Shown piece after piece: positions 2,629-50,490 of a DNA stretch of 50,490 bases (its first letter is position 1; each line of letters begins with the position of its first letter). The position numbers were made by a program, and so were the translations under genes. The stretch lies in the IMG/VR virus record IMGVR_UViG_3300044999_000017, positions 1-50,490 of that record. One strand, 5' to 3'. The notes below the pieces were generated by a model, which was not told the origin of the DNA, searched no databases, and saw only the letters and a list, made by a program, of their open reading frames with translations. This DNA is from a virus. Its lineage: Duplodnaviria > Caudoviricetes.

Positions 2629-3390
2629 TTAGAGGTTCGCACGGTTGCGCGCTTGTAGCCCAATGATCTGAATTGCCTTGGCGTGTGGCGCTCCTCCAGC
2701 TTGCGGCGGCTGCAGCGCCACTAGCATCGTCGTGTAGTGATCCGTTGTCCCCGTCGTTGATCCTTGGCTGAACGTCGCATGCGCCGAGCCGGCGCTTGCC
2801 AATATCCGATACGACAGCCGGCTACAGTCAAATAGGTTCGGGCTTGTAATGCCGTTGATGGCACCAGAGAAGCTGGTTCCGTCTGCAGGAACATTGCTCC
2901 CGCTACCCTGCGTGTCGTGATCCTGACAGAAGGCGACCAGCATGCAATTAGCAACGGAAGTCGACGCGCTCCCTGCCGATGTTATTGCGTCAGTGCCGGC
3001 CCCGGGCGAGGTCTGGCTAGCCGCTTCGTGAGCATTGACGATGCTCGCAGTGGTATCGGCTCCACTCCACTCACTGAGCGTCAATCGCGGATAGACGCCG
3101 TTGGATCCTGTGTAACTGACGGTCACCGTTTGTGGCGCATTGGTGATGTTCCTGGCGACATAGCTACGAAGTTCGTTGGCATTGGCCGCTCCACCAAGAA
3201 TCGTATCGACCGGCGCGTAAGTGTTGCTCTTGTCGTCAGTGAGTCCGCTGATAGTGCCGGTCGCACCGTGCTTGAGGAAGACAACAACACTGTTCCCGCT
3301 CGCGACTGTGCCAGTAAACGTGACCGCCAGCGACGATTGCGAGGATCCATCGAAAAAGCCGAATTTCTGCTGGACAGGGGCGATAGCCAT
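2629..3390 (-). CDS. putative tail appendage / receptor-binding protein
   Basis: Ser/Thr/Gly-rich beta-sandwich-like sequence (TDDKSNTY, ITNAPQTVTV) in the tail cluster. Confidence 0.55.
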   Translation of the reverse strand: MAIAPVQQKFGFFDGSSQSSLAVTFTGTVASGNSVVVFLKHGATGTISGLTDDKSNTYAPVDTILGGAANANELRSYVARNITNAPQTVTVSYTGSNGVYPRLTLSEWSGADTTASIVNAHEAASQTSPGAGTDAITSAGSASTSVANCMLVAFCQDHDTQGSGSNVPADGTSFSGAINGITSPNLFDCSRLSYRILASAGSAHATFSQGSTTGTTDHYTTMLVALQPPQAGGAPHAKAIQIIGLQARNRANL

Positions 3391-45446: not shown

Positions 45447-46427
45447 ATGCGCACGATGGGGCGCCGACGCCAGCACGACCACCACTTGCCGCCCCTGATG
45501 CTCGAGCGCGCGGGCCGCTATTACTACGGCCGGAATCACGAGGCGCTAGGACCGGACTTCCCCGCGGCGCTCAGGAAGTACGCCGAACTCCACGGCGCGA
45601 CATTCGAAGCACAAACCTTCGCCGAGGTCGCCGCTGAATACCTCAGATCCGGCACCAAGCACCTTGCCCCTAAAACAGTGAGGGAATATGAAAGGCAAAT
45701 GCCGATCCTCGTGCGGGTGTTTGGCACATGCAAACTTGCCGGAATCCGGCCAGTACACGTCCGTCAATACCTTACCAAGCGGGAGAATAGTGTTTCAGCT
45801 ACACGCGAGAAGGCACTGTTATCTGGTGTCTTTTCCTTCGCAAGAAACGTTGGACTCTTTGACGGCCCAAACCCGTGCGGGGGCATCAAAGGGAAAAAAG
45901 CACATCGTCGGCGTTACGTCACTGATGGGGAGTTCAACGCGACGCTGGGGTGTTGTGATTCCACCACTAGAGACTTCCTCGAGCTCTGCTACCTGACCGG
46001 CCAACGGCCCAGCGACGTGCTCAAGATGCGCCGCACGGACATTCAGGACGGGGCGCTATGGGTCACTCAAGCAAAGACAGGGGCCAAGGTCAGGATAACG
46101 ATTGTCGGCCCGCTGGAGGCCGTTTTAGCCCGGTCCTATCCCGTTGGAAGTTTGTACCTCGTTCGCGACGAGCGGGGCCAGCGCATGAATCTCCAGGCAA
46201 TCCGCAAACGCTTCTGGAAAGCTCGCAAGGCAGCCGGGCAGGATTGGCGCATTCAGGACTTGCGGCCGAAAGCAGCAAGCGACATGGCGACGTCACAGAA
46301 GGCACAAGCTCTGCTCGGGCACTCCGCGGCGAGCACCACGGACGGCTATATCCGGCAACGCATCGGACAGCTTGTGGAACCTGTTTTGCGGGAAACGGCT
46401 GCAATTGCGGGAAAGCAGAAAAAGTGA
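45447..46427 (+). CDS. int: tyrosine integrase
   Basis: LTGQR..D (R), QAKTG (K), QDLR (HxxR variant), LLGH and TTDGY (Y); adjacent to attP. Confidence 0.93.
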   Translation: MRTMGRRRQHDHHLPPLMLERAGRYYYGRNHEALGPDFPAALRKYAELHGATFEAQTFAEVAAEYLRSGTKHLAPKTVREYERQMPILVRVFGTCKLAGIRPVHVRQYLTKRENSVSATREKALLSGVFSFARNVGLFDGPNPCGGIKGKKAHRRRYVTDGEFNATLGCCDSTTRDFLELCYLTGQRPSDVLKMRRTDIQDGALWVTQAKTGAKVRITIVGPLEAVLARSYPVGSLYLVRDERGQRMNLQAIRKRFWKARKAAGQDWRIQDLRPKAASDMATSQKAQALLGHSAASTTDGYIRQRIGQLVEPVLRETAAIAGKQKK

Positions 46428-46820: not shown

Positions 46821-47032
46821 CTACTTCGCAGCTAGTGACAGTCGAGTTAAGGTACGAATCGGGAACTATGCCAATCCTGCGCCACGCGCATAATTTCCTC
46901 TATGCGATCGGGCTGACTTTCAGCGTTAAGGACGGAGTCGCGCGCATCTTCGTGCCGGGCTATGACTTCATCATTGTGCCGGACGGTGAAACTGTCGGCC
47001 TAACCATCGCCCGAGGGGACCCGCCAAAATAG
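46817..47032 (+). CDS. hypothetical protein
   Basis: ATGA-coupled 71 aa. Confidence 0.55.
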   Translation: MTTSQLVTVELRYESGTMPILRHAHNFLYAIGLTFSVKDGVARIFVPGYDFIIVPDGETVGLTIARGDPPK

Positions 47033-47083
47033 CGCGGAGACCGTAGCCCCCGCGCAAGAGCGCCAGCAGGAGGAGCTGGCGCT
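47026..47083 (-). terminator. UCCUCCU-loop hairpin plus terminator at the end of the late operon
   Basis: Minus strand agcgccagc-TCCTCCT-gctggcgct, then gcgcgggggctacggtctccgcgc-TATTTT. Confidence 0.7.
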
Positions 47084-48269: not shown

Positions 48270-48406
48270 GGTTTCTTGCTCCAAAGTGTTTTGATCCACG
48301 CCACGATAGGCGCAGTCCAGCCGGGATTCTTGCCGGTGATCCAGCCAAGCAGGAAGCCGATTGCGCCGCCGATCAGGAGCAGGCAAATGGCACCGAGGAA
48401 GGTCAT
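48266..48406 (-). CDS. small membrane protein
   Basis: Manual: MTFLGAICLLLIGGAIGFLLGWITGK...; ATGA overlaps at both ends. Confidence 0.55.
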   Translation of the reverse strand: MTFLGAICLLLIGGAIGFLLGWITGKNPGWTAPIVAWIKTLWSKKP

Positions 48407-48588
48407 GCGGGCTCCGTCCGTCCGTAAGCGATGGCCCGAAGCGCGGCTATCTCTTGGCTCCAGTTTTCGCCGGTGTATGGCCGGCCGTGGATCTGCACCA
48501 TCAAAAACGCATTGTTCAGCGCTGGCTCAAGGCGGTCATACTTTTCGACGAAATCGCGTATCGCTTTGACAAGCTGCGAATTGGTCAC
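48403..48588 (-). CDS. hypothetical protein
   Basis: Coupled 61 aa, IHG.PY.G.NW motif. Confidence 0.55.
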   Translation of the reverse strand: MTNSQLVKAIRDFVEKYDRLEPALNNAFLMVQIHGRPYTGENWSQEIAALRAIAYGRTEPA

Positions 48589-48938
48589 GGCTTCGGCTCC
48601 TCTGCGGCACAGCCCAAAAGGGCAGCGTTGGCCTTGATCTTGTAATCATCGAGCGCGAGCAGATCGGCCTTCGTCTGGTAGTAGCGCTGCAACGGCGTAC
48701 CGTTCGGATCAATCGTATTCGGTGGCAGCGGCGGCATTTCCTTGCACTTGTCGGCCGGGTTTGCGCCTACGCACCCCCCGATGGGTTTCACGCATCGCAC
48801 CGGAACAGGATCGTGCACTGGCGGCAGCGATGTAACGGAGCTGACCAGTTTCGGCTCGGGCTTCAAGGCGGTTGTGCCGCAGGCGGTGAGCAGGGCTATA
48901 ATGATGACGCAGGTGTGGACCGTCTTTAGCGGCGGCAA
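48585..48938 (-). CDS. o-spanin (Rz1-like) lipoprotein
   Basis: TTG start with AGGA RBS, IIIALLTAC lipobox, Pro-rich PVPVRC, C-terminal L.GC. Confidence 0.7.
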   Translation of the reverse strand: MPPLKTVHTCVIIIALLTACGTTALKPEPKLVSSVTSLPPVHDPVPVRCVKPIGGCVGANPADKCKEMPPLPPNTIDPNGTPLQRYYQTKADLLALDDYKIKANAALLGCAAEEPKP

Positions 48939-48951
48939 ACCGTTCCTGCTT

Positions 48952-49084
48952 TGAGCGGCAGCGCGGAAAGCTAGACGTGCGTTGGAAGTGGCTAACGCAT
49001 CCCCACCATAGGTTGCGAGTCGGCCGACGGATGCCACAGACGATGGGAATTTGCCCACAGCCGGAGTAGCGCCCGGCCCGCTCA
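48952..49084 (+). ncRNA. putative tRNA-like structured RNA
   Basis: 7-bp acceptor stem TGAGCGG/CCGCTCA, D-like arm GCGCG/CGTGC, T-like arm GCCGG/CCGGC, expanded central region. Confidence 0.55.
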
Positions 49085-49255
49085 TTCGAGGTCTCGCAGG
49101 ACAATGCGCCCGCAACGAATACACCTGCGCCATTGCCTCATACGGCCTTTGGTTAAGTCCCACTTGCTCCACTTATGCGTAATCCAGCACTGGTCTGCGA
49201 CCTCTCGCGGAGGCGGCGGCATAGAATGCGACACAAGCTTTAATATCTTGCCCAT
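49082..49255 (-). CDS. small Zn-binding protein (C..HKW...RC.RCG)
   Basis: Manual translation, 57 aa: MGKILKLV...CWITHKWSKW...RRCIRCGRIVLRDLE. Confidence 0.6.
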   Translation of the reverse strand: MGKILKLVSHSMPPPPREVADQCWITHKWSKWDLTKGRMRQWRRCIRCGRIVLRDLE

Positions 49256-49258
49256 TGT

Positions 49259-49726
49259 CTACTTTCCAACCCTCACCGCATCGACCGGAAACAATATCGC
49301 CCGCTGCGCTGCAAACTGTTTGCTGTCGGCGTCGATCTCGGCCAAGGTCTGCTCGCAGGTCATGACCGTTGCAGGTCTTCCAGCCTTCGCCCGCGCATCC
49401 TTCTGCGCTGCGGAGAGTTGCACCAGCGTCGATTGAGCAGCATTCAGGTTGTTCTGCGCGACGGTCGCAGCACGTTCGGCTAATCCCTTCCACGCCAGCA
49501 CGTTCGAGCTCTGTTCGTCGCGCTCCTTCTTGATAGGTTCTATGCTGGCTTGTAGAGACACATTGTCAGCCAAGCACGTTGCCGTATTAGCTTGCGCTGC
49601 GCTAATTGCAGCCTCATCTTTAGCTTTTTGCGCTACTGCTATACCGTGATCGTGTACCGCAACGAATCCCGCTAGGCTCGCAAGGAGCACTAGAATGGCG
49701 ATGCCGCCGATCATCCAGCTTGTCAT
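49259..49726 (-). CDS. i-spanin (Rz-like)
   Basis: N-terminal TM, long Ala-rich coiled coil, C-terminal Cys; upstream of the lipoprotein. Confidence 0.7.
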   Translation of the reverse strand: MTSWMIGGIAILVLLASLAGFVAVHDHGIAVAQKAKDEAAISAAQANTATCLADNVSLQASIEPIKKERDEQSSNVLAWKGLAERAATVAQNNLNAAQSTLVQLSAAQKDARAKAGRPATVMTCEQTLAEIDADSKQFAAQRAILFPVDAVRVGK

Positions 49727-50490
49727 GGCGCTGTCGTCGCGCTCCAGCCGCTGCCGGTCCAGAGATACCAGTTGCCGCTGCTGTTCTTGACCTTGATCTG
49801 CCCCGCCTTGAGACTGATGACGACGCCCTGACCTAAGGCGGCGGACACGCCATTACGCATGATCCAGTAGCCATACATCGAAGCGCCGGCCAGCGACCAC
49901 ACCGCCCCGCTCGGATCGGTGAGCGTTGAGCCATCCCGCGGAACCTGTATCTCCGGCACTGGCGCGCTCGCTACGTCGGGCACAAGCTGATTCCACAACG
50001 CCTTGCCTGCGTCGATCTGCGCTTGCGTGACGCTGCCGAGGGTCAGTCCATTCCCCGCGGCTTTGATATTGTCGATCAGCATTTGAGTGTTTCCTGTTGG
50101 CGTTGGAATAGACGGCGGCGGCACGACAGGCCCGAAACCATACGCCGGATAGATCGTCGGATACGAGGTCGGGCCGGTGAAACTGACGCTGCGTACAACC
50201 CTATACGGCGTTAACTCAGCATAGCTATAATGAAACGGAATCGGGCTCGCGCTGCGAGAGTCAGGTCCTAACCAGCCAGTGCTGTCGTATCCCCACACAC
50301 AAAGCTCGTGCCCTGGTGGCGGGGCGTAGTTCATCGAGCACATGACCGGATGCCCTGCCGCAATCTCGGTCTTCATTTGCAGAATCAAGTCACTTGGCTG
50401 GAAAACCATACTCCCGTTTTGCGGGACCCAGATGCCGCCCTGTATGTCTCCGTATTCGAGGATCTTGTGATTGGGCGCGTCGGCAAATGC
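49723..50490 (-). CDS. papain-like cysteine peptidase, 3' part (continues from 339-28 across the origin)
   Basis: GHELCVWGYD catalytic-His motif, Pro-rich linker, C-terminal aromatic beta domain. Confidence 0.75.
   Translation of the reverse strand, partial: AFADAPNHKILEYGDIQGGIWVPQNGSMVFQPSDLILQMKTEIAAGHPVMCSMNYAPPPGHELCVWGYDSTGWLGPDSRSASPIPFHYSYAELTPYRVVRSVSFTGPTSYPTIYPAYGFGPVVPPPSIPTPTGNTQMLIDNIKAAGNGLTLGSVTQAQIDAGKALWNQLVPDVASAPVPEIQVPRDGSTLTDPSGAVWSLAGASMYGYWIMRNGVSAALGQGVVISLKAGQIKVKNSSGNWYLWTGSGWSATTAP
50464..50490. repeat. 27-bp terminal direct repeat, right copy
   Basis: Identical to 1-27. Confidence 0.95.

Follow-up and report, generated by a model that had tools for sequence, protein, structure and literature searches.

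What fills the gap between two genes near the end of the late operon of a tailed phage? The phage is IMG/VR virus record IMGVR_UViG_3300044999_000017, a complete virus record of 50,490 bp with terminal repeats present, which was analyzed over its full length and is called the window here. Its minus-strand late operon contains, near the end, a 143-nt spacer between the stop codon of a 57-codon open reading frame (ORF) and the TTG start at 48938 of an o-spanin-type lipoprotein gene. The spacer is filled by a 133-nt element at 48952–49084, which a first-pass annotation, made from the sequence alone, had described as a tRNA-shaped RNA encoded on the opposite strand. We are highly confident that this stretch is a real RNA gene. 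More specifically, comparison with its relatives identifies it as an apparently intact plus-strand gene for a small non-decoding RNA that is built on a tRNA frame and belongs to a large phage family.

The element is present as a single copy in this phage. It opens with the 5′ strand of a 7-bp, acceptor-like closing stem (TGAGCGG, 48952–48958, plus strand) that pairs with CCGCTCA at 49078–49084, and all seven of these pairs are standard. A 2-nt linker, CA (48959–48960; CG in the family consensus), leads to a D-like hairpin (48961–48980) in which the stem arms GCGCG (48961–48965) and CGTGC (48976–48980) enclose the 10-nt loop GAAAGCTAGA. The family consensus of this arm is GCGUG-GAAAGCAGA-CACGC, and the stem in the window departs from it by a double change from U:A to C:G and by a change from G:C to G:U, with pairing retained. 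The following 79 nt (48981–49059) form a variable arm that replaces the anticodon arm and is unalignable between family members. The element is completed by a T-like hairpin (49060–49077), with arms GCCGG (49060–49064) and CCGGC (49073–49077) around the 8-nt loop AGTAGCGC, that stacks on the closing stem with zero spacer. The last three bases of the closing stem are the TGA stop codon of the 57-codon ORF on the minus strand, so that the two features overlap by 3 nt. There is no TTCRA loop, and the bases that follow the element are TTCG rather than an encoded CCA. The first-pass annotation thus read the locus correctly: the stems, the linker, the two hairpins and the middle of about 80 nt all lie on the plus strand where it had placed them, and both of the absences that it listed are borne out.

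Relatives were collected with two DNA patterns. The first represented the T-like arm and matched at least 119 viral contigs; about 13 of the 121 matches listed are real members, the rest being mostly a phage tRNA-Gln and unrelated hairpins that follow stop codons. On the strand that corresponds to the plus strand of the window, these members are conserved at both ends, 5′ and 3′, and have unrelated middles. The second search used the D-like arm motif alone, without any demand on the other two stems. It matched at least 120 viral contigs, and the complete frame is found in 104 of the 117 matches listed. This frame consists of the 7-bp closing stem, a 2-nt linker and a 5-bp hairpin with a GAAAGC... 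loop, and, in its 3′ part, another 5-bp hairpin, which has the 8-nt loop AGUAGCGN and stacks on the closing stem. The insert between the two hairpins ranges from about 35 to more than 200 nt, is unrelated between members, and is at least 33 nt long in every complete member. Among the 104 complete elements listed, the loop NNUAGCGN, which the search did not demand, is present in about 95, AGTAGCGC is the commonest T-like loop (50 elements), and AGTAGCGA occurs in 15; the T-like hairpin of the window is identical to the commonest family form. A scan of genome contigs with the D-arm pattern added 28 real members among the 120 matches listed. The same pattern also matches a thiolase coding motif, GGVESMS(R) (e.g., in L243, L248, L255, and L259), which makes up most of the other matches and is a trap for searches of this RNA family by its D-like arm. 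One further locus, L002, came from a metagenome scan with the lysis proteins of the window; on the strand matching the plus strand of the window it has the same architecture and folds with a z score of −3.32. Unannotated copies are present in three cultured phages, Ochrobactrum phage POI1126, where the copy is placed between two tRNA genes, and Pseudomonas phages PotUPM1 and Persinger.

To assess covariation we aligned 84 distinct elements of at most 165 nt, comprising 76 from the second search, the window, and seven from the first search. In the three stems 98.9% of the cells are standard pairs versus 83.3% after shuffling of partners, and pairing falls to 31–45% when the 3′ partner is slid by one to three columns, although these counts lean towards structure because our script retained only candidates with at least 6/7 and 5/5 pairs and because most D stems are fixed by the search pattern. 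Double-sided changes occur in 11 of the 17 pairs, with 210 doubly changed cells compared with 49.6 expected. The covariation score is 0.415 versus 0.098 in shuffles, and none of 500 shuffles reaches any of five measures. The closing stem (helix 1) has 99.5% of its cells paired and changes on both sides in five of its seven pairs; pairs 1–5 use all four Watson–Crick types freely, and G:C occupies column 6 in 81 and column 7 in 82 of the 84 sequences. In the T-like stem (helix 3) four of the five pairs show double changes. Compensatory changes are thus seen in all three stems across homologs. Independent support for the structure is given by the D stems of the first set, which vary yet pair (GCGUG/CACGC, GCAUG/CAUGC, and GCGCG/CGUGC in the window), by the loop consensus that no search had requested, and by the three cultured phages, which were held out. 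The covariance model R1, which has the window among its 84 training sequences, finds one match in the window (48952–49084, plus strand, full length, E value 3.9e-11) with a score of 75.8 bits that is partly by construction, and the elements of the three cultured phages, which lie outside the model, score 79.2, 66.3, and 54.3 bits. On the evidence of these alignments, strong selection is shown to act on the pairing of the frame and on the sequences of two loops.

Some relatives depart from the common form. A subfamily (L046, L059, and L109) has a shorter D-like loop, GAAGGA, together with other T-like loops (UAUCAAUC, UAUUAAGC, and AAUCAAGC), and L102 has a near-canonical UGCAAAU loop; in these members the D-like and T-like loops seem to change together. 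Two elements (L063:2225–2391 and L015:3154–3344) carry a 40–110-nt insertion within the D-like loop, and the insertion in L063 holds a second GAGUAGCG. Another recurrent element was noticed at an ATGA junction in seven viral contigs (L010, L017, L030, L032, L035, L036, and L086); it consists of a GGGGC-GAAA-GCCCC hairpin and then a conserved G-rich tail, and is separate from the tRNA-shaped family.

The RNA does not belong to the known classes that it resembles. ARAGORN reports no tRNA and no tmRNA in the window and calls no member of the family. With Rfam 15, the full window has no match at the gathering score and the surroundings of the site have no relevant one at E values up to 10, so that both of these checks, which the first-pass annotation had asked for, leave the element without a match. 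Rfam likewise finds none for the family RNA in the loci of 13 relatives at the gathering score or in the elements of six relatives at lenient thresholds. Compared with a canonical tRNA, 79 unrelated nt stand in the place of the anticodon stem-loop, and instead of a UUCRANY T-loop and a GG D-loop there is a T-like loop AGUAGCGC (8 nt) and a D-like loop GAAAGCUAGA. As for tmRNA, in addition to the lack of an ARAGORN or Rfam match the G3:U70 alanine identity pair is missing: pair 3 of the closing stem is A:U in the window, G:U in 0 of 84 sequences, and U:G in two. The RNA cannot read codons. The family is apparently uncatalogued: Rfam 15 does not contain it, and the GenBank records of the carrier phages leave it unannotated. 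A full-text literature search returned, in the passages retrieved, no description of an RNA with these features. PMC10690425 reports 10,006 unnamed structured RNAs predicted from IMG/VR, and its supplementary predictions may include this one.

Several signals agree that the plus strand is the RNA strand, as had been proposed. In the 112 loci examined, 12 tRNA genes lie within 1 kb of an element, every one of them on the strand of the element and seven at a distance of 4–27 nt; Rfam adds one further tRNA, in L102. Hexamers of the −10-like form TANNNT that start at −20 to −11 of the RNA 5′ end number 27 in 134 loci, compared with 5–11 in other bins and 6 on the control side, and terminator-like hairpins within 90 nt downstream number 7 versus 1 in the opposite sense (135 loci). 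In Persinger, the RNA begins 12 nt past the stop codon of the integrase gene and lies 10 nt ahead of a clear intrinsic terminator. The variable arms are purine-rich on the RNA strand (G 32.4%, C 26.1%, A 24.1%, and U 17.4% of 13,145 nt). The ends of the RNA show tRNA-like tendencies, namely U at −1 (42/102), G at +1 (42/104), and A as the discriminator (40/102), and CCA is encoded after the discriminator in six of 102 distinct elements. In the window, a candidate −10 box, TATAAT (48897–48902, plus strand), can be read from the sequence 49 nt before the RNA, with a weak candidate −35 box, TTGTGC (48872–48877, plus strand), at a spacing of 19 nt. On the minus strand these six bases are the ATT ATA codons for an Ile-Ile pair in the signal peptide of the lipoprotein, and ATA accounts for 32 of the 423 Ile codons of the phage. 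In L002 a TATAAT is also found just before the RNA (at about 3012–3017, minus strand), again within ATT ATA codons; the hexamer may be a −10 box kept inside coding sequence.

The family is distributed sporadically among tailed phages and prophages of many bacterial phyla, and while the hosts of its carriers range from Proteobacteria to Planctomycetes and Acidobacteria, the two loops barely change. Five bacterial genomes have one copy apiece, two of 151 genomes sampled from one bacterial family carry the RNA gene, and complete Escherichia coli genomes gave no match. Neighbors in bacterial genomes are prophage-like (DnaB, SSB, D5-type primase, and S24 repressors), and neighbors in phages vary and include terminase, HNH, portal, tail, lysis, integrase, repressor, and replication genes. 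The orientation of neighboring ORFs relative to the element is about even (upstream 56 same and 41 opposite; downstream 53 and 48). Five of the 13 first-set loci have the element exactly against stop codons, and the stop-codon overlap seen in the window recurs in L002, L021, L082, and L091. In three contigs (L125:7541–7667, L141:2798–2924, and L163:2803–2929) the whole element, including the insert, is 97–100% identical. Between L125 and L141 the insert is 97% shared, and the 300-nt flanks are 55% and 54% identical against a background of 50 ± 2%; the flanks of L141 and L163 have 71% and 59% identity. The similarity among the three ends within about 30 nt upstream and a few nucleotides downstream of the element, which suggests that the RNA gene was recently transferred as one unit. 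The RNA gene thus behaves like a tRNA gene or a moron, that is, as a compact, self-contained, horizontally shuffled unit.

The variable arm follows different rules from the frame. Insert identity between random members is 45 ± 7%, which is the level of unrelated sequence; the description of a tRNA-shaped scaffold with a variable insert therefore holds for the family, with a nearly invariant frame and an insert unrelated between phages. The arm is without an anticodon stem-loop; with no anticodon arm there for anticodon nucleases to cut, the earlier suggestion of a decoy for these enzymes is, as worded, unlikely. No shared motif stands out in the variable arms. There is no support for a sponge of the CsrA type, as GGA is not enriched (315 seen versus about 325 expected from composition), or for a repeated GUAGCG module within the arm (four seen versus 4.9 expected).

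What might such an RNA do? The reading that we favor, and consider fairly probable, is that the RNA is trimmed like a tRNA, that its frame provides stability and docking, and that its variable arm carries out a phage-specific task in trans. The RNA would be transcribed alone or together with tRNA genes, and its ends would be cut by the tRNA end-processing enzymes, with RNase P acting at the 5′ end and 3′ trimming taking place with or without CCA addition. RNase P, 3′ processing, and CCA addition are known to require no more of a substrate than a 12-bp acceptor/T helix. In this RNA, the helix and the two conserved loops would confer stability and form a surface on which a conserved factor of the host or phage could dock, and the variable arm would be the phage-specific part of the job. 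In this phage the transcript would be fully complementary to the late lysis mRNA, which we take as a by-product of where the gene landed and not as its main function. It is a more tentative and, on balance, doubtful extension that the invariant tRNA-like handle recruits a conserved cellular machine and that the fast-changing arm serves as a programmable guide, bait, or antidote against a system of the host or of a rival phage. If true, the family would be nature's equivalent of the engineered tRNA scaffold, used in conflict between phage and host and overlooked by annotation even in cultured phages of Pseudomonas and Ochrobactrum.

A number of results speak against this proposal. Taken alone, the element of the window is no more than chance: the plus strand folds with a minimum free energy of −50.4 kcal/mol versus −47.2 ± 3.6 for 200 dinucleotide shuffles (z = −0.87), 39 of which fold as well, and the minus strand has a z score of +0.41 versus shuffles. 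What lifts it above chance is that the same frame recurs in more than 100 unrelated phage contigs with compensatory changes in three stems, and the pairing counts carry the selection bias given above. The D- and T-like loops are unlike tRNA loops, and recognition by tRNA enzymes is assumed. A scan for consensus promoters and terminators found nothing on the plus strand near the element and did not report the TATAAT at 48897, and the nearest −10-like hexamer in the window, 49 nt upstream, is outside the peak position of the family. No neighboring protein is conserved; the largest ORF cluster covers 6 of 140 loci and suggests no partner. Complementarity of the insert to phage or host mRNAs had been proposed as a test, and in nearby phage sequence there is none beyond controls: considering exact matches to locus DNA only, in none of 116 loci is the longest complementarity of an insert to its own locus greater than that of the best among 40 foreign inserts.

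Because the element lies among lysis genes, we also analyzed its neighborhood. The head, tail, and terminase genes of the window are on the minus strand, and an integrase gene (45447–46427) is on the plus strand. At the site, the order of the operon is an i-spanin-like gene with an N-terminal membrane helix (49259–49726, minus strand), the 57-codon ORF, which has a CxxxH ... CxxC pattern (49082–49255, minus strand), and the o-spanin-like lipoprotein gene (48585–48938, minus strand). The TTG start at 48938 is preceded, 5 nt upstream, by AGGA (48947–48944), and the protein read from it has a 20-residue signal peptide that ends in the lipobox LLTAC. The gap in the minus-strand operon is thus genuine, as the lipoprotein has its own well-formed start outside the element. 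The RNA gene is antisense to both the 57-codon ORF and the o-spanin-like gene, and it ends 13 nt from the TTG start, adjoining AGGA. Searches of PHROGs and Pfam with nine local ORFs gave two weak hits only and no family, including for the i-spanin-like gene and the 57-codon ORF; as no PHROG or Pfam family matches the lipoprotein either, the name “spanin” is inferred. A blastn search with 48300–50490 found no match among cultured phages, and scans of viral and genome contigs with the lipoprotein or the i-spanin-like protein found no relatives. A protein search found seven relatives of the lipoprotein and a profile search of 1.8 billion representatives found 33; the homologs P0001–P0037 have the lipobox and a Pro/Cys-rich mature part in common with it. 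In L002, a homolog of the i-spanin-like gene directly precedes and overlaps the lipoprotein gene, and the 57-codon ORF is missing at the corresponding place. Elsewhere in the window, a strong intrinsic terminator (47032–47055, minus strand; 10-bp stem, eight of its pairs G:C) closes the late operon. The integrase gene ends about 600 nt away from it, and the attachment site is probably between the terminator and this gene.

The lipoprotein could also be read from a longer start. An ATG at 49083–49085 (minus strand) overlaps the upstream stop codon as ATGA, P0002, P0004, and P0005 are called from the same MSGP start, and the frame stays open upstream to GTG 49172. Most relatives have ordinary short signal peptides, and several have long N-termini starting with MSGP. 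In these homologs MSGP is the antisense reading of the RNA 3′ end and the PPL before the hydrophobic core is that of the 5′ end; the long N-termini therefore mark loci that hold the RNA. The RNA is present at the same junction in the window and in L002, and the N-terminus MSGPGATPA suggests that the P0002 contig has it there as well. A 14-mer at this junction is common to the window and L002. In each it is followed by a GCCGG...CCGGC hairpin, with loops of 8 and 4 nt, respectively, so that the reading frame of the hairpin arms differs between the two loci. For the 147-nt stretch 48939–49085, codon statistics are ambiguous: the lipoprotein frame is the best of the six, but its −0.03 bits per codon place it near the 5th percentile of real coding windows, and G+C by codon position is 0.63/0.69/0.55 versus 0.60/0.47/0.68 in the genes of the phage. 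L002 has the same ATGA junction, and its sole other in-frame ATG, GTG, or TTG before the lipobox is four codons before the cysteine; in the stretch L002:2875–3030 (plus strand), its o-spanin-like ORF is without a usable start except the ATG antisense to the RNA 3′ end. Judging from this arrangement, the signal-peptide leader of the L002 lipoprotein is apparently encoded antisense to the RNA gene. Translation of the o-spanin through the region from 49172 had been named as grounds for abandoning the RNA; such an overlap, which is unusual, is apparently possible in L002, where the ORF would run antisense to the RNA, and the RNA gene is not thereby removed. A “coding extension” of the lipoprotein, an early working idea, was dropped as the main explanation once the RNA family appeared. 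For annotation, the caution is that gene callers run neighboring ORFs through the RNA gene.

Four other explanations of the element can be weighed against a trimmed RNA that acts in trans. The RNA could be a tRNA mimic serving as a decoy or sponge, whose frame alone titrates a host tRNA-binding enzyme or a defense protein directed at the acceptor end or elbow while the arm is a tolerated spacer. A bacterially conserved partner would fit a frame that is far better conserved than any neighboring protein in very different hosts, and inserts of about 35 to more than 200 nt with no motif in common, as well as the lack of an antisense target near the gene, are what a spacer would lead one to expect. 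However, a spacer of no use would be expected to become shorter, whereas no complete member has fewer than 33 nt, and one lineage has conserved its insert at 97–100% amid unrelated flanks; moreover, the sequence of the acceptor stem varies freely, so that no particular tRNA is imitated, and the loops are unlike tRNA loops. We therefore regard a decoy as unlikely, although it is the main rival. It is less probable again that, in this lineage, the RNA is a cis-antisense regulator of the lysis genes, whose base pairing with the late mRNA would keep spanin synthesis low or uncoupled until late. The RNA occupies the same junction in the window, L002, and (by its MSGPGATPA N-terminus) the P0002 contig, a TATAAT made from the rare ATT ATA pair stands upstream of it in the first two, and the position of the element next to AGGA, 13 nt from the TTG start, would suit such a role. 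For the family as a whole, however, the contexts are diverse (tRNA arrays and integrase, repressor, terminase, tail, and replication genes) and the orientation of neighbors is about even (56/41 upstream and 53/48 downstream); antisense pairing with a neighbor thus cannot be the function of the family.

The element might instead act as DNA, either as a folded single-strand site for recombination or priming or as a small mobile insertion with the closing stem as its ends. It is a discrete unit in unrelated flanks, stands against stop codons in 5 of 13 first-set loci and directly after the integrase gene in Persinger, is mixed in its orientation relative to neighboring genes, and folds about equally well on both strands in 13 members. 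All of the 12 nearby tRNA genes, however, are on the RNA strand, as are the promoter-like and terminator-like signals, the purine skew, and the G:U pairs, and there are no terminal direct repeats and no recombinase that travels with the element, which makes a DNA role very improbable. Finally, chance pairings in a G+C-rich 5′ coding part of the lipoprotein gene would explain why the fold energy is at chance level, why the frame from ATG 49085 is open and in phase with the lipoprotein with an ATGA overlap, and why homologs are called from the same start and L002 has no other. Against this, the first 29 nt and the last 25 nt of the element recur, with covarying stems, in more than 100 phage contigs that do not have such a lipoprotein gene. 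The shared bases fall in different reading frames in the window and L002, whose hairpin loops differ by 4 nt, and the G+C of the stretch by codon position is atypical. Contradicted in addition by the complete frames, the covariation, and the scores of the held-out phages, chance is hardly credible.

A handful of tRNA-like RNAs without an assigned role are known from phage genomes. The family described here is large, with at least 120 viral contigs, at least 28 copies in bacterial genomes, and at least three cultured phages. The analysis provides a defined covariance model for annotation as well as cultured systems, and it raises the questions of what binds the two conserved loops and what the variable arm does.

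Among known systems, RNAC and RNAD of phage T4 are the closest in kind to the family: they are small stable phage RNAs (139 and 119 nt) in a tRNA cluster and on the tRNA strand, and several family members likewise lie 4–27 nt from tRNA genes on the same strand. The two T4 RNAs are processed by RNase P and have been without an assigned function since the 1970s. PMC9697503 describes them as confirmed by Northern blot, with functions that are still unknown. A search of the T4 tRNA region with R1, with filters off and at E values up to 10, gave no match to rnaC or rnaD, and RNAC has a canonical UUCGAAU T-loop, whereas the present family has AGUAGCGN. In the T4 rnaC and rnaD genes (L364:2909–3172, minus strand), we did note that the 8-mer GAGUAGCG, a hallmark of the T-like loop of the family, occurs twice in rnaC, and that rnaD starts with a CCGG hairpin whose loop contains the complementary CGCUAC. 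These occurrences could be coincidence, a shared protein site, or an RNAC–RNAD contact.

The C4 RNA of phages P1 and P7 and the CI RNA of P4 are short, base-pairing immunity factors that RNase P cuts from longer transcripts. The family resembles them in that some copies are in an immunity region beside cI or an S24-type repressor, and differs from them in its size, in its conserved loops, and in having no complementary target near the gene. The Rfam C4 model finds none in the window, in the loci of 13 relatives (gathering score), or in L091, L102, and L105 (E values up to 10). In YrlA, the stem that binds Ro60 is made by the ends of the RNA, with the tRNA-like part inside. In Chen et al. 2014 (PMC4201824), YrlA is presented as a non-decoding, bacterial Y RNA-like tRNA mimic with a tRNA-like module that is also found in phages. 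The Rfam YrlA model has no match in the window or in the elements of relatives, and no Ro60-like protein is among the neighbors scanned, in which no search aimed at Ro60 was made. A parallel in design is the engineered tRNA scaffold for the expression of recombinant RNA in E. coli, a method to which PMC3753655 refers, in which the insert is put in the place of the anticodon arm. That scaffold is man-made and, unlike the family, uses a real tRNA frame with canonical loops, but its insert is trimmed and stabilized by tRNA-processing enzymes, which is the mechanism that we propose for the natural family.

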